A DNA stretch of 64,000 bases. Origin: Lachnospiraceae bacterium. GTDB taxonomy: Bacteria > Bacillota > Clostridia > Lachnospirales > Lachnospiraceae. The notes under the pieces are model-generated. The model was not told the origin of the DNA, searched no databases, and saw only the letters and a list, made by a program, of their open reading frames with translations. The DNA is taken from assembly GCA_045546775.1 (NCBI GenBank), contig JAZQDM010000063.1, positions 25,864 through 89,863 of the forward strand. The letters run 5' to 3'. The translations under genes were made by a program, and so were the position numbers. Below are positions 6,975 to 42,109 of the stretch, one piece after another. Each line of letters begins with the position of its first letter. The stretch's first letter is position 1.

Positions 6975-7275
6975 ATACACAGACGCGCAAAGACGTTGAC
7001 GAAGACAGTAGGCAGCAGCCGAAGTTTCAGCGAGCCGGAGATGGTGAGAGTCCGGTACAAGTAAGCACTGTTGAATATCACTTCTGAGTTGCAGACCCGA
7101 ACCGATTGCATTTGCAAAGAAGTAGGGGCTGACGGTATTCCCCCGTTAAAGGAACACATATAAAACCGCATTTGCAGTTTGCGTAAGTGGCAGACAGTAG
7201 TATCCGGGGAGTATGATTGTAACAGGTGGTATAACGGGATTTTTAGACCTCGTCCTTTTACAGGACGGGGTTTTT
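6975..7275 (+). promoter_or_regulatory. T-box leader, Ile specifier, with intrinsic terminator
   Basis: Stem I elements (AGAGA-type loop GGTGAGAGTCCGG) and candidate specifier ATC followed by A (7077-7080). T-box sequence GGTGGTATAACGGG (7225-7238). Terminator CCTCGTCC/GGACGGGG plus T5 (7248-7275), directly upstream of ileS. Confidence 0.8.
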
Positions 7276-7372
7276 ATAATTTATAAGATTATTTGCGCGA
7301 GCATAATAGAAACTGCGAAGCATTTTCGCAAACCGTCGAGAGGGCGGTAAGAGGAAAGAAAGGAAGAAAAAG

Positions 7373-10300
7373 ATGTACGAAAAAGTATCTACAAATCTCA
7401 ATTTTGTTGAACGCGAAAAACAGACATTGGATTTTTGGAATGCCAATGACATTTTCAAAAAAAGTATGGACAGCAGAAAAGAAGGCCCTACTTATACTTT
7501 TTATGACGGACCGCCGACTGCAAACGGCAAGCCGCATATCGGTCACGTTTTGACACGTGTTATCAAGGATATGATTCCGAGATACCGCACCATGAAAGGC
7601 TACATGGTTCCGCGTAAAGCAGGCTGGGACACACACGGCCTTCCGGTAGAGTTGGAAGTTGAAAAGCTTCTTGGTCTGGACGGAAAAGAGCAGATTGAAG
7701 AATATGGTCTTGATCCGTTTATTACAAAATGTAAAGAAAGTGTTTGGAAATACAAAGGAATGTGGGAGGATTTCTCCGGCACCGTTGGTTTCTGGGCAGA
7801 CATGGACGACCCGTATGTTACATACCATGACGATTATATTGAGTCCGAGTGGTGGGCGTTGAAAGAAATCTGGAACAAAGGCCTTTTGTACAAAGGCTTC
7901 AAAATCGTTCCGTACTGCCCGCGTTGCGGAACTCCGCTTTCATCTCACGAAGTGGCACAGGGCTACAAAGATGTAAAAGAGCGTTCTGCAGTGGCAAGAT
8001 TCAAAGTAAAAGGCGAAGATGCGTATATTTTGGCATGGACAACAACACCTTGGACATTGCCGTCCAACGTGGCTCTCTGCGTGAATCCGGACGAAACTTA
8101 TGCAAAAGTAAAAGCAGCAGACGGTTACACATATTATATGGCAGAAGCTTTGCTTGATACTGTTCTTGGCAAGCTTGCAAAAGAAGAAAACAAAGAAACA
8201 GGCGAAGCAGCCGTAAAAGCTTACGAAGTATTAGAGACTTACAAAGGTAAGGATTTGGAATACAAAGAGTACGAGCCGTTGTTTAACTATGCGGTTGCAA
8301 CTTGCGAAAAACAGCACAAAAAGGCATTTTATGTAACATGCGACAATTACGTTACATTGACAGACGGTACCGGTGTTGTTCACATTGCACCGGCATTCGG
8401 TGAGGACGATGCGAACGTTGGACGCAAATACGATTTGCCGTTCGTGCAGCTTGTTGACGGAAAAGGTGAGATGACAAAAGAAACACCGTATGAAGGTGTA
8501 TTTTGTAAAAAAGCCGACCCGATGGTTTTGACAGATTTGGAGAAAAACGGTCTTCTCTACGATGCACCGAAGTTTGAGCACAGCTATCCGCATTGCTGGA
8601 GATGTGACACACCGCTTATTTACTACGCAAGAGAATCTTGGTTTATCAAGATGACAGCGGTAAAAGAAGACTTGATTAAAAACAACAACACCATCAACTG
8701 GATTCCGGAATCTATCGGAAAAGGTCGTTTTGGTGACTGGCTTGAAAATATTCAGGACTGGGGTATTTCCCGTAACCGTTACTGGGGTACACCGCTTAAC
8801 GTATGGGAGTGCGAATGCGGACATATGCATTCCATCGGAAGCCGTCAGGAATTAGCAGATTTGAGCGGAAATCCGGATGCAAAATCGGTAGAGCTTCACA
8901 GACCTTACATTGATGAAGTGACATTCCCGTGTGAAAAATGTGGTAAGACAATGCACCGTGTACCGGAAGTTATCGACTGCTGGTTTGACTCCGGAGCAAT
9001 GCCTTTTGCACAGCATCATTATCCGTTTGAAAACAAAGATTTGTTCGAGCAGCAGTTCCCGGCTCAGTTTATTTCTGAAGCGGTAGACCAGACAAGAGGA
9101 TGGTTCTATTCCTTACTTGCAGAATCTACGTTGTTGTTCAACAAAGCGCCTTACGAAAACGTAATCGTTTTGGGACACGTACAGGATGAAAACGGCCAGA
9201 AGATGAGTAAGTCCAAAGGAAATGCAGTAGACCCGTTTGATGCACTTGCAACTTACGGAGCAGACGCAATCCGCTGGTATTTCTATATCAACTCCGCACC
9301 GTGGTTGCCGAACCGTTTCCACGGAAAAGCAGTACAGGAAGGTCAGCGTAAGTTCATGGGTACTCTTTGGAATACCTATGCGTTCTTTGTACTTTATGCA
9401 AATATCGATAATTTCGATGCAAGCAAATACAGCTTAGAATACGACAAATTGACCGTTATGGATAAATGGCTTTTGTCCAAGTTAAATACATTGATTGAAG
9501 AAGTGGACAACGATTTGGGTAACTACCGCATTCCGGAGGCTGCAAGAGCTTTGGAAAGCTTCGTAGACGACATGAGTAACTGGTATGTAAGAAGAAGCCG
9601 TGAACGTTTCTGGGCAAAAGGAATGGAGCAGGATAAGATTAATGCTTACATGACACTTTACACAGCGCTTGTAACCGTAAGTAAAGTGGCCGCACCGATG
9701 ATTCCGTTCATGACAGAAGACATCTACCAGAACCTTGTAAGAAGCATTGACAAAGATGCTCCGGAAAGTATTCATTTGTGTGATTATCCGGTTGCCGACA
9801 AAGCATTCGTTGACAAAAAACTGGAAGAAGATATGGATGAAGTTTTGAAAGTTGTTGTTATGGGTCGTGCATGTAGAAATGCCGCAAACATCAAGAATCG
9901 TCAGCCTATCGGAAACATGTTTATCAAAGCGCCTCATGCATTGGATGAATTCTATCAGGCAATTATAGAGGAAGAGCTTAATGTAAAACAGGTGAACTTC
10001 ACAGACGATGTAAGAGACTTCACAAGTTACACATTTAAACCGCAGCTTCGTACTGTTGGACCGAAATACGGCAAACAGCTTGGCGGCATCCAGAAAACAT
10101 TGGCTTCCTTGGACGGCAATGCAGCAATGGATGAGTTGAAAGCAAACGGCGCTCTTAAGTTTGATGTAAATGGCGTGGAAGTGGCTCTTACTGAAGAAGA
10201 TTTGCTTATCGAAATGTCACAGAAGGAAGGCTACGTATCAGAAGCAGATAATACAGTGACTGTTGTACTTGATACAAACCTTACCGAAGAGTTGATTGAG

Positions 10301-33128: not shown

Positions 33129-33236
33129 TAAAATGAGGGTATAAGGGGACAAAAGGATGAAGAGAAGTACAGATACGCTCCCATATATCGAGGAACTATA
33201 TAGAGTAAAAAATCAGTGTTTAGGAGAGTGTTAAAT

Positions 33237-34721
33237 ATGAAAAATTCTTCAGAAAATAAATCTTTTGCAATTTTCATAATATTAAGTTTTTTAGTTTATA
33301 TAATGTCCAACGGAGAATGGTGTATTCCGATTTTTGCGTGGATTTATCCGATTTTGTTTTTATGTATGATTTATCTTAATCGTACTCGAAAAGTCTACCT
33401 TATAATTAGTTCAATATATGCCATTGGTTTTATTGTCCAGTTTTGGAGAGCCATTGGAATGGACATAAAGATATGTATAATAGTAGCAGTCCTGCTATCT
33501 TTTCTGAAGGTTTTACCATATATCTACTGGTCAAAATCAAAAATGAGATTTCAAGATACCATTATTTTTGCAAGTATAATGGTATCGATAGAGTATATCA
33601 TTTATCTGGTATACCCTATTTTGGGTGGATTGTCTGACGCTTATACACAATACCAAAATCTATATTTGCTACAAATTGTAACGGTAACAGGGATTTACGG
33701 AATTATTTTTTTAATATATTGGACAGCGGCAATGGTTATATGGATTTGGAACAATAAAAGCAAAAAAGAATCCATTAGAAAATACATAATTGTATATGGT
33801 TCTGTAATTGGCTTGGTATTTGTCTATGGAGTTGTTATGTTTCATTTTGCAGGAAATTCAGATAAAAGTGTTAGGATCGCTGGAGTAACTGTTCCGATTT
33901 CAGAGCTGTTAAATAATGATGAAGATGTATATTCTACATTTTATACCAATACATTTACTGATGAAAATATTACAAATGCAAGGAGTAAACTATTATCAGT
34001 AGCGGATGAACTTTTTCTAAAAACCGAGTTGGAAGCACAAGCAGGTGCAAAGATTGTTTTTTGGTCGGAACTGAATGGAGCGGTTTTAAAACAAGATGAA
34101 GATATGCTGCTACAACGAGCGTCGGATATGGCAAAACAGGAAGAAATCTATTTGATTGTTTCGTTACTGGTGAAGACCCCTTATGTGGACTTAAAGGAAA
34201 ATAAAACGGTAGCATTTAATCCACAAGGAGAACTTATATCAGAGTATTTTAAACATGGACGTTCCATCGGAGAGTTGTGCCAAAAAGGAGATGGAATACT
34301 AAGAAGTTTTGATACAGAATATGGTAGAATTGCGCCGTTTATATGTTCGGATATGGCATTTGTGTCTAAAATACAACAGGCAGGTAGAGATAACGTAGAT
34401 ATAATAATTGTTCCGGCTTCGGATTGGAAAGAAATGACATTGTTAGCTACAAAGACGGCAATTATGCGCGGGGTTGAAAATGGAAGTAATATAATCAGAC
34501 ATACAAATAACGGAATGTCGATTGTTTCAGATTTTAGAGGTAGTGTGCTGGCACAGACCGATTACTTTCAGTCTGATACAAAGACATTATCTGCACAGGT
34601 TATCACGAAGGGGCGATTTACTCTTTATTCGTATATTGGAAATCTATTTGTATATCTGTGTGTTTTATATTTGTTATGGAGTTTCATACTTCCCCAAATT
34701 AGACGTCTAATTAAGAAGTAG
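33237..34721 (+). CDS. Apolipoprotein N-acyltransferase-like protein (polytopic N-terminus plus CN-hydrolase domain)
   Basis: About 6 N-terminal TMs. CN-hydrolase triad candidates FWSE (Glu), K in LKENKTVAFNP, PFICSDMAF (Cys). C-terminal TM. Markedly AT-rich by eye. Confidence 0.6.
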   Translation: MKNSSENKSFAIFIILSFLVYIMSNGEWCIPIFAWIYPILFLCMIYLNRTRKVYLIISSIYAIGFIVQFWRAIGMDIKICIIVAVLLSFLKVLPYIYWSKSKMRFQDTIIFASIMVSIEYIIYLVYPILGGLSDAYTQYQNLYLLQIVTVTGIYGIIFLIYWTAAMVIWIWNNKSKKESIRKYIIVYGSVIGLVFVYGVVMFHFAGNSDKSVRIAGVTVPISELLNNDEDVYSTFYTNTFTDENITNARSKLLSVADELFLKTELEAQAGAKIVFWSELNGAVLKQDEDMLLQRASDMAKQEEIYLIVSLLVKTPYVDLKENKTVAFNPQGELISEYFKHGRSIGELCQKGDGILRSFDTEYGRIAPFICSDMAFVSKIQQAGRDNVDIIIVPASDWKEMTLLATKTAIMRGVENGSNIIRHTNNGMSIVSDFRGSVLAQTDYFQSDTKTLSAQVITKGRFTLYSYIGNLFVYLCVLYLLWSFILPQIRRLIKK

Positions 34722-39462: not shown

Positions 39463-39547
39463 AGAGTGGGAAAGGTTTGGGAATTAAAGTATAGTGCCCT
39501 GTTTTGCGCAATATAATTACACTACTGCGTTGTTTGTGAAAATATTG

Positions 39548-39576
39548 TTGCATTTTACAGAATATCGCGATAAAAT
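39548..39576 (+). promoter_or_regulatory. Sigma-A promoter of the riboswitch transcript
   Basis: TTGCAT (39548-39553), 17 nt, TAAAAT (39571-39576). Confidence 0.5.
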
Positions 39577-39589
39577 AAACTTGTGTGTA

Positions 39590-39686
39590 AGAGAGATGGC
39601 AAACTTATGGAAACGTAAGGACGCAAAGCAGGAAGTCTAAGTAATGGGGAATGTGTGGGACTCTATTATATTGATGGTTCGGTTGC
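39590..39686 (+). promoter_or_regulatory. c-di-GMP class I (GEMM-I) riboswitch aptamer
   Basis: GGCAAA (39598-39603). Stem CUUAUG/CGUAAG capped by a GAAA tetraloop (39604-39619). GACGCAAAGC (39620-39629). UCUAAG receptor-like element (39636-39641). Same layout as the Vc2 core GGCAAA-CCAUUC-GAAA-GAGUGG-GACGCAAAGC. Confidence 0.8.
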
Positions 39687-39712
39687 AGTGAGACTCATTG
39701 CAGCCTTTTTTT
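39681..39712 (+). terminator. Riboswitch expression-platform terminator
   Basis: GGTTGCAGTGA-gac-TCATTGCAGCC followed by T7. Confidence 0.75.
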
Positions 39713-39731
39713 GTGCAAAAAGGTGGTTGGT

Positions 39732-39866
39732 ATGAAAGAAACTGGTGTGAACAAAATTATTTGGGCTATTTGGGTAAAGATAGAGAGTGGGCTATGGACG
39801 ATGATTTCTTTTTATATAAAACTCCGGACAGCCAAAAGAAAGCAGAGGATAATGTCAATCAGTTAG
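39732..39866 (+). CDS. Possible 44-aa leader/small protein (not in ORF track)
   Basis: AAAGGTGG RBS 6 nt before ATG. MKETGVNKIIWAIWVKIESGLWTMISFYIKLRTAKRKQRIMSIS. Its stop overlaps the RBS of the next gene. Competes with a 63-aa ORF in another frame. Confidence 0.25.
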   Translation: MKETGVNKIIWAIWVKIESGLWTMISFYIKLRTAKRKQRIMSIS

Positions 39867-39875
39867 GAGTATTAT

Positions 39876-40427
39876 ATGGAACATACTAAAAAGGAAGTAA
39901 AATACAAGACGAAAAGGGAAGAGGAGATATATTTAAAAACACTTTTGTTTTTAGGTGTAAGTCTTGGAGGGATTGTTATTTTATTAGACTTGTATTGTGT
40001 GATATTTAAGGGGGAAAATGTTAGTGAAGACTTTTTTTCCAAATGTTGTCTGTTTTTTGCAATGACCATAGGGCTTTTATACTATTTCATACCAAAATAC
40101 AAGCGAAAAATATATGCCCAAAAGGGAGAGCTATTTGCAGGAAATGTTATTGGTGCCGATTGTATGATTCAAGGAAGGGGTGAGCATGCCTACTACCTCA
40201 TCATCGCATTTTACGAGAATGGCGAGAGAAAATTGCGCTATTCCGAGCCTTATGCGGGGAGCCCCAGATGCAAGTTGCGGGATACAAGCTGCGAGGTGTA
40301 CAAGTGGAAAGGAAAGTACATAGAAGGCGGATTACATGGCTTGTACAAAGGGGAGGAGTCGAAGAATCTGCCGATTCCAATATCAGAGTATCATAGTCGC
40401 GATAGGAAAAAATACGACTATGTGTAA
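39876..40427 (+). CDS. Uncharacterised two-TM membrane protein with about 100-aa C-terminal soluble domain
   Basis: TAGGAG RBS. Helices LLFLGVSLGGIVILLDLYCVIF and CCLFFAMTIGLLYYFI. AT-rich. Confidence 0.6.
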   Translation: MEHTKKEVKYKTKREEEIYLKTLLFLGVSLGGIVILLDLYCVIFKGENVSEDFFSKCCLFFAMTIGLLYYFIPKYKRKIYAQKGELFAGNVIGADCMIQGRGEHAYYLIIAFYENGERKLRYSEPYAGSPRCKLRDTSCEVYKWKGKYIEGGLHGLYKGEESKNLPIPISEYHSRDRKKYDYV

Positions 40428-40577
40428 ACGTTTAAAACAGTAATAGAAGCAGTATATGGAAAAGATTTGCACTAAGTTGTAAAATGTAGTTCATTTAAGG
40501 AGGCTGTCGTAGAAAAGGGCAGTCTCCCTAAAAACCGCATACTACAATGCATAACACAATTATGAGAGTACATAGAA

Positions 40578-41231
40578 ATGAAAAAGAAAATAACAATTGC
40601 AGTAGCAACTATTGTTTTTCTGATTGCTGGTATTTTTGTTGCAATTATGGGACTTGGCATAGGAAAAGCAAGAAGACAAGGAATGAATATTGTATATGAT
40701 AATCAAGTATATGTGGAAGCCGATAGTCCATACCAATACATAAAAGATGAAATGATTGCGATAACCTCGGAAGGCATTCGCTTATATAGTGTAAAAGGCG
40801 ACAAGGCATGTAACTATTTAATAGATTCACATTCAGGCTGTCTATACATAAAAGAGGGATATGAACCACCGAAAACAGAAGTGACAGGAATCATTGTATA
40901 TGATGGTGTCTTAAAGGCTGATAATGATGAACAATTATTAGAATTGGTAAGCGAGTTAAGCAATATGCAACAAGAACCGGATACAATAAGTCGGGAGAGT
41001 TATTTTTATACGACGGACAGAGCCGGTACCGGAGGAATGGATATTAATATTTGTTATGATAATTGTTGGGTTTCCTTTGATTATTTTGGCGAGATTGTGA
41101 AAGGCAAAAATGGTTATCTGTTTATTGCTTCGGAGCAGTTAATAAATAATAATTATGAACTTGTGGAATATATGGGAATCAGGATTGATAGTAAATATGA
41201 TGCTTTGTTAGATACGTATCGTACGAAATAA
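40578..41231 (+). CDS. Uncharacterised N-terminally anchored extracytoplasmic protein
   Basis: MKKKITIAVATIVFLIAGIFVAIMGLGIG anchor. I recognise no motif in the remaining 185 aa. Confidence 0.6.
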   Translation: MKKKITIAVATIVFLIAGIFVAIMGLGIGKARRQGMNIVYDNQVYVEADSPYQYIKDEMIAITSEGIRLYSVKGDKACNYLIDSHSGCLYIKEGYEPPKTEVTGIIVYDGVLKADNDEQLLELVSELSNMQQEPDTISRESYFYTTDRAGTGGMDINICYDNCWVSFDYFGEIVKGKNGYLFIASEQLINNNYELVEYMGIRIDSKYDALLDTYRTK

Positions 41232-41360
41232 TTGTGGTATGTAACACAGTTGACATGAGTGTTTTCGCGTAGCAGACAAGCAGTAACAGCAAAAACAGGT
41301 AGCGCGGAACAGGGAGATGAAGTTGCAAGTAGTGTTGCGGAAACGTAGAGGGACAATCGA

Positions 41361-41879
41361 ATGAAAAGAAAAAGCAAAAAAGTAATTATTATAATCCTAT
41401 TTTTGATTGCAGTAATCACGATAGCATTTCTAATTTATATAAATCGGCCTTTGCCGGCTCCGGAAAGAATAGTGACACTTTTTGAAACATACGAAGAGGA
41501 TTATACAAAAATCGCTCAAATATATTACAACGATTATTTGACACGAGAAGAAGACAAAGTTGCTTATTCGACAGCAGAAAGTGGAGAAATTACTTGTCGT
41601 TTGCAAGATACGGATTTGAAAAAAATTGCTCTGACAGAGGACGAAACCGCAAGTGCAAGGCGGATAGACGACACTTTTTCTTTGGATGGATATTATTGGG
41701 ACAGAGTATATGTATATGAGGGATTTGTCTCTTTTTCAACTGTGACAGGGCACGTATCACTAGTTTATTCTGTAGATGGTTCAAAGCCGACGAGGATTAA
41801 TTTCCCGGATGATGGTTTTGAGTACATCGTGTCAGATGCAAAAATCACAGAGCACTGGTATTACATGTCCGGACAATAA
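41361..41879 (+). CDS. Uncharacterised N-terminally anchored extracytoplasmic protein
   Basis: MKRKSKKVIIIILFLIAVITIAFLIYI anchor. No recognisable motif. Confidence 0.6.
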   Translation: MKRKSKKVIIIILFLIAVITIAFLIYINRPLPAPERIVTLFETYEEDYTKIAQIYYNDYLTREEDKVAYSTAESGEITCRLQDTDLKKIALTEDETASARRIDDTFSLDGYYWDRVYVYEGFVSFSTVTGHVSLVYSVDGSKPTRINFPDDGFEYIVSDAKITEHWYYMSGQ

Positions 41880-41917
41880 TCTGATATGCAAATGAAGATG
41901 CGACTTAGTTAGTAGAA

Positions 41918-41951
41918 GGGACGATATGTTTCGTGTGACGCATATCGTCCC
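41918..41951 (+). terminator. Hairpin ending the AT-rich block (weak T-tract)
   Basis: GGGACGATATG-loop-CATATCGTCCC, followed by TTAAATT. Confidence 0.4.
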
Positions 41952-42109
41952 TTAAATTATGATGCAAAATTAGGGACGGTGACAACAAATTTTATGATTC
42001 CACTGCCACAAAGGAAGGATAGATGTTATAATAAAAACACATCTGCCAAACACTATATTTTAAAAGCATGTATCTTTCAGGCAGATAGGCACAATTTCAG
42101 GAGGCAAAT

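Follow-up and report, generated by a model that had tools for sequence, protein, structure and literature searches.

Class I cyclic di-GMP (c-di-GMP-I) riboswitches of Rfam family RF01051 are known from surface-protein genes of Clostridia and Bacilli, which they control by transcription termination, as in the Cdi-1-2/CD2797 pair of Clostridioides difficile. Nearly all of the class I c-di-GMP riboswitches of C. difficile are OFF switches (PMC6200980). An element of the same aptamer class, with the same termination control, is located in a 64,000-nucleotide (nt) stretch of DNA, termed the window, from a Lachnospiraceae bacterium (GenBank assembly GCA_045546775.1, contig JAZQDM010000063.1, positions 25,864 to 89,863 of the forward strand), where it precedes three open reading frames (ORF1, ORF2, and ORF3) for membrane proteins. 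The riboswitch and these genes are probably a horizontally acquired, cut-down operon for a c-di-GMP-induced surface protein. The locus differs from the described adhesin-controlling c-di-GMP-I riboswitches in that the adhesin gene has been deleted and a small downstream partner, ORF1, kept. The regulatory principle is already known; the ORF1 protein family and two orphan proteins, the products of ORF2 and ORF3, are new here.

As in the Cdi-1-2/CD2797 type, the ancestral cargo of the riboswitch would have been a surface protein, here a large one with calcium-binding, VWA, and CBM domains. Unlike the sortase-anchored (LPXTG) adhesins that c-di-GMP controls in C. difficile, the products of ORF1–ORF3 have neither an LPXTG sorting signal nor a C-terminal anchor. 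The CD1980.2 family of C. difficile consists of membrane-associated proteins of 58 amino acids (aa) that are class I riboswitch cargo and promote sporulation; these proteins are four-helix bundles, multicopy, and repressed by c-di-GMP (bioRxiv 10.64898/2026.06.10.731418). Both groups are taxonomically restricted membrane proteins with no recognizable domains behind a class I riboswitch. ORF1–ORF3 differ, as far as a comparison by description goes, in their length (172–217 aa), architectures, single copy, and predicted induction. CD630_19900 (CD1990), a 161-aa SH3 domain protein encoded downstream of Cdi-1-1, is the sole class I-linked C. difficile gene induced by c-di-GMP (PMC6200980, PMC11477304). 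ORF1 resembles it, again by description only, in being small, of similar size, and equipped with a small β-barrel domain. None of the 25 Pfam families listed as matching 61 members of the ORF1 family most often is an SH3 family.

Riboswitch and Terminator

The features between the start of the leader and the end of ORF1 are as follows.

39554–39581, + strand: promoter-like site TTTACA-16-TAAACT
39588–39690, + strand: c-di-GMP-I (GEMM-I) aptamer, Rfam RF01051, 54.1 bits
39681–39712, + strand: intrinsic terminator, an 11-base-pair (bp) stem at 39681–39705 followed by T7
39737–39889, + strand: remnant of a large CBM_2/VWA gene, last ~50 codons, in the frame of the ORF at 39698–39889
39876–40427, + strand: ORF1, 183 aa

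The aptamer is the sole Rfam family found in the 64-kb window. The match covers model positions 1–87 of 87 with an E value of 8.7e-8 (the gathering score of the family is 35), and the core motifs GGCAAAC and GACGCAAAGC agree with the consensus. The presumed ligand is c-di-GMP, not the 3′3′-cGAMP bound by GEMM-Ib variants. The c-di-GMP riboswitch proposed in an initial annotation of this block is genuine, and its terminator platform is intact. The site directly upstream of the aptamer scores 9/12 in a consensus scan and is best described as weak and promoter-like. The riboswitch and ORF1 are on the same strand and are separated by 186 nt.

The 5′ arm of the terminator is formed by the final 10 nt of the aptamer (39681–39690). 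The ligand-free minimum-energy fold includes the terminator (−37.8 kcal/mol), and the aptamer base is restored when the 3′ arm of the terminator is blocked (−22.0 kcal/mol). In these foldings the terminator and the aptamer base are mutually exclusive. Because the bound aptamer would withhold the 5′ arm of the terminator, the element is predicted to be an ON switch that allows read-through in the presence of c-di-GMP, unlike most class I elements of C. difficile. The pbuE adenine riboswitch and other ON switches share this overlap of terminator and aptamer.

An OFF switch, with the genes made at low c-di-GMP in motile or planktonic cells, is unlikely. It would be in keeping with C. difficile, where class I elements repress flagella, ZmpI, and an adhesin by premature termination (PMC6200980) and where the 58-aa small proteins are likewise repressed (bioRxiv 10.64898/2026.06.10.731418). 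Against it stand the presence of the terminator already in the ligand-free fold and the ON-type layout, an overlap of 6–10 nt between the 5′ arm of the terminator and the 3′ end of the aptamer, which is found in the window and in two other loci (L083 and L104, below). No separate anti-terminator is evident in the leader folds.

Remnant of a Gene for a Large Surface Protein

Homologs of ORF1 were identified in other loci, among them L083, L085, and L104. Two of these loci, L083 and L085, contain the large gene to which the spacer between riboswitch and ORF1 was compared.

L083, 1880–1975: c-di-GMP-I aptamer, 64.1 bits
L083, 2060–5986: large protein gene, 1308 aa, with signal peptide, CBM_2, calcium-binding (TSP3-like) repeats, and VWA
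L083, 6001–6522: ORF1 homolog P0009, beginning 15 nt after the large gene
L085, 419–1996: homolog of the large gene, followed 14 nt later by P0010 at 2010–2513

The 525-aa protein of L085 was used as a tblastn query. It gave a match of 42.7 bits at positions 39668–39886 that stays colinear up to the final residue and stop codon. No better match exists in the window; the E value is 1.3e-6 when the whole window is searched and 5e-8 for the block. The best score among shuffled controls (n = 300) is 26.2 bits. In alignment A5 the remnant is 43% identical to the C-terminus of the L085 protein, with the pattern W.E..YLGYL.KD...D.F.YKT..S...A..N...LG....Y-stop. Since the match is colinear to the stop codon and scores above all shuffles, the spacer at 39737–39889 is the end of a deleted gene for a large surface protein. 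The remnant runs 14 nt into ORF1.

A 44-aa ORF (39732–39866, + strand) with a strong ribosome-binding site (RBS; AAGGTGG) also lies in this spacer. No homolog was found for it. It is in the same frame as ORF1, from which it is separated by the TAG codon at 39864–39866, 10 nt before ORF1. In a codon model of the window it scores −0.16 bits/codon in its own frame, and the overlapping frame of the remnant scores +0.43. The 44-aa ORF is probably a by-product of the deletion. Its ATG is position 39732, which had been given as the start of the block and is not the start of ORF1.

The large proteins of L083 and L085 are 53% identical over ~490 C-terminal residues. The L083 cassette has a MobA_MobL relaxase on one side and a fragment of an integrase on the other, and forms part of a mobilizable element. 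The large gene of L085 is broken (L085:121–1996): residues ~249–790 are missing, the CBM_2 part is in another frame and joins directly to the C-terminal 500 aa, and P0010 is intact. A hydrophobic segment is found at residues 1182–1211 of the L083 protein, within the conserved C-terminal region. Pfam and PDB sequence searches with the C-terminal 428–525 aa gave no significant match. Compared across L083, L085, and the window, the sequences indicate that the large gene decays and the small partner is kept. In L104, where an ORF1 homolog also lies behind a riboswitch, no trace of the large gene is detectable. Also encoded in the L085 locus are AgrB, a protein with RHS repeats, and small ORFs of the lipoprotein or two-transmembrane type.

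Riboswitches at Other ORF1-Family Loci

Eight loci of the ORF1 family were evaluable: the window, L083, L104, L001, L087, L089, L092, and L100. In the Rfam scan a c-di-GMP-I riboswitch is present upstream of the ORF1-family gene in three of the eight, namely, the window, L083, and L104. The element of L104 is as follows.

L104, 2833–2939: c-di-GMP-I aptamer, 45.7 bits, 197 nt upstream of homolog P0012

In L083 and L104 the aptamer and terminator overlap by 6 nt each, compared with 10 nt in the window, and a TTGACA-17 promoter occupies the same relative position as the site in the window. The ~424 kb scanned contain three c-di-GMP-I matches, all upstream of ORF1-family genes on the same strand, and 278 kb of DNA from related Lachnospiraceae yielded no match. 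The chance of this placement for all three matches, if they were random, was estimated by the authors at ~6e-5, the cube of the fraction that eight upstream windows of 4.2 kb make up of 848 kb of strand space. The link between the ORF1 family and c-di-GMP-I riboswitches is thus strongly enriched but not universal. The initial annotation would have counted homologs never linked to such riboswitches as a refutation; those of ORF1 are linked in the independent loci L083 and L104. The genes downstream of the ORF1 homologs are different at every locus.

Several further observations were made at these loci. Between the terminator of L104 and its ORF1 homolog lies another ORF of 44 aa (L104:3033–3167), which has a strong RBS, resembles a signal peptide in sequence, and overlaps the start of the homolog by 32 nt. 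In L100 two tandem ORF1-family paralogs (7049–7549 and 7860–8378; L100:7049–8378) with no riboswitch are flanked by a 561-aa unknown protein and whiA. In L092 the family member P0027 adjoins a DDE_Tnp_1 transposase upstream of secG, rnr, smpB, and tmRNA (L092:3610–5464). P0027 occurs on 24 contigs, and the eight places shown (L092–L099) share the transposase/secG context. A Clostridiales-1 RNA-like match (36.9 bits, with a gathering score of 48 bits) is located just past the ORF1 homolog of L083 (L083:6724–6852).

The ORF1 Protein Family

A word-indexed search with ORF1 returned two relatives, 65% (P0002) and 37% identical. A profile search of 1.84 billion representatives returned 79 clusters at E ≤ 1e-3, of which 13 are at E ≤ 1e-30. 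The members are all ~150–200 aa long and match end to end. Their common pattern consists of MKYKTxRE, two transmembrane (TM) helices, KRxxxKxxG, a β domain with the motifs YxGNPN, CxVYK, and KYxExDF, and a C-terminal IPI...YV. ORF1 retains C139, the one invariant column of the family alignment, together with G84, I91, Y126, P130, L134, Y142, and I167, each of which is conserved in at least 90% of the sequences.

The AlphaFold2 model of ORF1, built from a 61-sequence alignment, has a predicted local distance difference test (pLDDT) score of 95.7. It shows a TM hairpin (helices 18–45 and 53–83) followed by a small β-barrel (strands 85–151). The termini and the barrel are predicted to be cytoplasmic by the positive-inside rule, and the soluble tail, which the initial annotation had pictured as part of an envelope or surface module, would therefore lie on the inner face of the membrane.

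Searches of Pfam, NCBIfam, PHROGs, and PADLOC with ORF1–ORF3 and 61 members of the ORF1 family gave sub-threshold noise only, mostly driven by the TM segments. Relatives of ORF1 are absent from the viral contigs and from the phage and plasmid collections. The scan of genome contigs with the ORF1 alignment gave no match; of two metagenome scans with this alignment, the first gave none and the second gave three short loci. The family and its link to a riboswitch-controlled CBM/VWA protein were not described in the literature searched. The family appears to be an undescribed family of membrane proteins, in agreement with the earlier observation that no recognized family is apparent in the block.

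The ORF1 model gave weak OB-like matches in a Foldseek search of the PDB and weak matches in BFVD. Among the latter are two DUF3592 proteins, one at a probability of 0.90 (E = 0.024) and one at 0.69 (E = 0.15), with TM-scores of ~0.3. ORF1 resembles DUF3592 (PF12158) in having TM helices followed by a small β-barrel. In DUF3592 the barrel typically lies between two TM helices, unlike in ORF1. The 25 Pfam families listed as most often matched by the 61 members at E ≤ 0.1 do not include DUF3592, and the Pfam scan of alignment A1 gave no match to it at E ≤ 10.

A role of ORF1 as a PilZ protein or another c-di-GMP receptor was considered and rejected: no Pfam PilZ match was obtained, the family consensus contains KRxxxK..G and lacks (D/N)xSxxG, and no PilZ structure is found among the top 50 PDB matches from Foldseek. 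The alignment of ORF1 with P0002 is a mosaic in which the C-terminal β domain is ~92% identical and about half of the residues in the N-terminal/TM part are identical. This suggests recombination or very uneven constraint.

The ORF1 family may alternatively consist of immunity-like proteins directed against a membrane-acting C-terminus of the large protein. The window would then hold an orphan module, a 3′ fragment of a toxin gene with an immunity gene kept for protection, and ORF2 and ORF3 would be unrelated passengers. The locus does resemble the orphan toxin C-terminus/immunity modules of contact-dependent inhibition (CDI), Rhs, and LXG systems, with a 3′ fragment of a gene for a large secreted protein followed by an intact gene for a small membrane protein. 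Like the genes of those modules, the ORF1 homologs occur solo, in tandem (L100), and on mobile DNA, next to a transposase (L092), in a mobilizable element (L083), or near an RHS-repeat protein and AgrB (L085). The spacing of 14–15 nt between large and small gene in L083 and L085 would suit such a pair, as would the survival of an intact small gene beside a large gene that is complete in L083, disrupted in L085, and represented in the window by its last ~50 codons, and the hydrophobic segment at residues 1182–1211. The weak likeness of the ORF1 fold to DUF3592 also fits. DUF3592 is a TM protein of unclear function in LXG toxin loci (PMC12482557).

The large protein itself argues otherwise. It has no recognizable toxin domain, and its CBM_2, VWA, and calcium-binding repeats are typical of adhesins. 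Its 500-aa C-terminal region is evenly conserved (53%) with no sharp polymorphic boundary of the kind found in CDI, Rhs, and LXG proteins. PADLOC gave no consistent match for the ORF1 family; a weak match to Imm72 was obtained for 1 of 61 members (E = 0.0074), and no Pfam immunity family recurs. Induction by c-di-GMP is, moreover, classic for adhesins. The immunity explanation is rather unlikely, and the cut-down surface-protein operon is retained as the preferred one.

Insertion Upstream of pyrC

The block is part of a longer interval of the window.

39463–42109, + strand: lineage-specific insertion, from the stop of a gene for a 350-aa DHHW-like protein to the start of pyrC, 2647 nt

The 350-aa protein was used as the query against species-representative genomes, which gave 80 Lachnospiraceae loci. 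In the five closest of these (L003–L007) the protein is 74–82% identical, and all five keep the order MBOAT / 350-aa gene / pyrC / pyrK / pyrD. The gap between the 350-aa gene and pyrC is 27–300 nt in these species, compared with 2647 nt in the window, so that the block is a lineage-specific insertion. No c-di-GMP-I riboswitch was found in L003–L007 by the Rfam scan. The possible horizontal acquisition raised in the initial annotation is upheld to the extent that the block is inserted relative to the five closest species; no mobility genes or terminal repeats were found at the block.

The same intergenic site holds an insert of ~300 nt in a metagenome-assembled genome from goat gut (L004:11055–11330), with the long inverted repeat AGAAGCAGCTAATACTTCTCA ... 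TGAGAAGTATTAGCTGCTTCT. The site between the 350-aa gene and pyrC may be a hot spot for insertions. Ahead of pyrC, at 42003–42032, there is a promoter-like site of the extended −10 type (CTGCCA-18-TATAAT with TG), and in the closest relatives pyrC begins just 27–94 nt past the preceding gene. As a result of the insertion, the pyr genes may no longer be coupled to the operon that precedes them, or may receive read-through transcription from the riboswitch unit.

ORF2, ORF3, and the Layout of the Block

The remaining features of the block are as follows.

40495–40531, + strand: hairpin 3′ of ORF1, −17.5 kcal/mol, lacking a + strand U-tract
40578–41231, + strand: ORF2, 217 aa, orphan with N-terminal signal anchor
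41361–41879, + strand: ORF3, 172 aa, orphan with N-terminal signal anchor
41916–41953, + strand: terminal hairpin of the block, perfect 13-bp stem, −24.1 kcal/mol, no or poor U-tract

This layout agrees with the initial annotation, which had described three ORFs after the riboswitch with internal gaps of 150 nt (ORF1–ORF2) and 129 nt (ORF2–ORF3). A hydropathy scan bears out its assignment of two TM segments to ORF1 and of a single N-terminal one to both ORF2 and ORF3. Its statement that all three genes have good RBSs holds for ORF1 (AGGAG) and ORF3 (GAGGGA); that of ORF2 (GAGAG, 10 nt upstream) is weak. The closing hairpin is present, with arms at 41916–41928 and 41941–41953 and thus a stem of 13 bp rather than the 11 bp reported. 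The block is, as stated, more AT-rich than its surroundings: the GC content is 0.391 for ORF1, 0.341 for ORF2, and 0.368 for ORF3, and 0.44–0.48 for the flanking genes. The mean for genes of the window is 0.428 with a standard deviation (SD) of 0.028, and ORF1 is just 1.3 SD below it. ORF2 and ORF3 rank second and third in AT-richness among the 52 ORFs of the window. The most AT-rich gene is Lnt-like (CN_hydrolase and LNT_N; 33216–34721), with a GC content of 0.335, below that of ORF2.

An ORF of at least 172 aa was obtained in 0.05% of shuffled versions of the block (n = 2000), and three such ORFs were never obtained. In the codon model, ORF1–ORF3 score +0.12 to +0.37 bits/codon in their own frames and negatively in the other two, and the same own-frame-positive pattern is found in the real flanking genes. 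Because shuffling never gives three such ORFs and the codon bias is frame-specific, ORF1–ORF3 are not chance products. The 44-aa ORF, ORF1, ORF2, and ORF3 share one reading frame, with one, three, and three stop codons between them. The common frame is judged a coincidence because every ORF starts with its own signal anchor; an origin of ORF1–ORF3 from one broken gene was ruled out on these starts and on the one to three stop codons between the pairs.

ORF2 and ORF3 match only themselves among 5.8 billion proteins, in searches that did not include a filter-free HMMER run. No match was obtained for either in Pfam, NCBIfam, PHROGs, PADLOC, PDB sequences, viral contigs, or plasmids. Their N-termini are canonical, positively charged signal anchors, and the two proteins are probably extracytoplasmic. 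The likeness between them is confined to these anchors, and a relationship as paralogs was ruled out on that ground. The N-terminal TM segment of ORF2 gave a Gram_pos_anchor match of 15.3 bits, below the threshold of 20. The single-sequence AlphaFold2 model of ORF2 (pLDDT 41.6) is unusable. Matches of ORF2 to designer PPR proteins in a phmmer search are repeat-summed noise in which no single stretch passes. A PPR-like motif at 40863–41000 (ORF2 residues 96–141, one 35-aa helix pair) is probably spurious.

The block could be a decaying leftover with no current function. The riboswitch and ORF1 would then simply have outlasted a recent deletion, and ORF2 and ORF3 would be recently arisen or spurious ORFs within AT-rich junk DNA. 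The loss of the principal cargo gene is compatible with decay, as are the low GC content, the singleton status of ORF2 and ORF3 among 5.8e9 proteins, the weak RBS of ORF2, and the lack of a strong closing terminator. This explanation is quite unlikely on the opposing evidence. The aptamer scores 19 bits above its gathering threshold and the terminator is perfect. ORF1 retains all invariant family residues and is modeled at a pLDDT of 95.7. None of the 2000 shuffles gave three ORFs of at least 172 aa, the frame-specific codon bias is like that of real genes, and ORF2 and ORF3 have canonical signal anchors.

The initial annotation had favored a single undescribed, c-di-GMP-controlled surface module of all three genes. 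ORF1–ORF3 are indeed on one strand behind one riboswitch, their products are all membrane proteins, and no strong terminator lies between them. A conserved three-gene module is nevertheless highly improbable. No homologs of ORF2 or ORF3 were found, even in the genome with the 65% identical P0002, and no ORF1 homolog that was read has an ORF2- or ORF3-like neighbor. The genes 3′ of the ORF1 homologs differ at each locus, and ORF2 and ORF3 are AT-richer than ORF1.

Proposed Mechanism

The ancestral unit, seen intact in L083, would have consisted of a promoter, an aptamer with overlapping terminator, a gene for a secreted CBM_2/TSP3-like/VWA protein of ~1300 aa with a C-terminal membrane segment, and an ORF1-family gene 15 nt downstream. 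In the window, all but the last ~50 codons of the large gene were lost by deletion, which left the riboswitch 186 nt before an intact ORF1. At low c-di-GMP, the terminator at 39681–39712 would form and transcription would end. At high c-di-GMP, the bound aptamer would keep nucleotides 39681–39690 and the polymerase would read into ORF1. Read-through would probably extend to ORF2 and ORF3, since the terminator scan of the block gave no convincing + strand terminator ahead of 41916–41953. The outcome would be a remodeling of the cytoplasmic membrane and envelope in the sessile, high-c-di-GMP state. ORF1 most likely acts at the membrane, where it would pair with the large surface protein through the membrane segment or cytoplasmic tail of the latter, and it may owe its retention here to a separate role or to an immunity-like function. 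The direction of switching, co-transcription, topology, and function are predictions of this scheme.

Several observations weigh against the scheme. No riboswitch was found at five of the eight evaluable loci (L001, L087, L089, L092, and L100), and because of these five the linkage is a property of a sub-lineage, not of the whole family. The interval 39463–42109 contains no integrase, transposase, relaxase, or flanking direct or inverted repeats. The ON assignment is a structural prediction that follows from the logic of the overlap, and the single induced class I-linked gene of C. difficile is also promoter-controlled (PMC6200980). Co-transcription of ORF1–ORF3 is putative: a hairpin follows ORF1 (40495–40531), which the terminator scan calls terminator-like on the − strand only, and weak promoter-like sites are found in the ORF1–ORF2 gap (40457–40485) and over the 3′ end of ORF2 (41205–41232). 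The short ORF of L104 was considered as the signal-peptide remnant of a large gene and showed no detectable homology. A surface role for ORF2 and ORF3, which have no homologs, is a guess from their topology.

Implications

The c-di-GMP riboswitch regulons of gut Clostridia beyond C. difficile are almost unexplored. The locus offers a testable, compact, putative ON-type class I design that is common to three unrelated loci, and a new family of small membrane proteins that is tied statistically to c-di-GMP-I riboswitches and to a giant CBM/VWA protein on mobilizable DNA. It is possible, if somewhat doubtful, that the ORF1 family adds a new player to the surface biology that c-di-GMP controls in gut Clostridia. 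The cytoplasmic barrel would engage the tail, membrane-embedded or cytoplasmic, of the giant CBM/VWA protein, as an anchoring or signaling adaptor or as immunity to a membrane-acting C-terminal domain not recognized before. The gene would repeatedly be kept under the riboswitch after loss of the giant gene, with ORF2 and ORF3 as newly recruited, lineage-specific surface cargo. The locus provides a clear example of operon reduction in which the adhesin is lost and its partner kept, and as such it bears on the question of adaptor versus immunity function.

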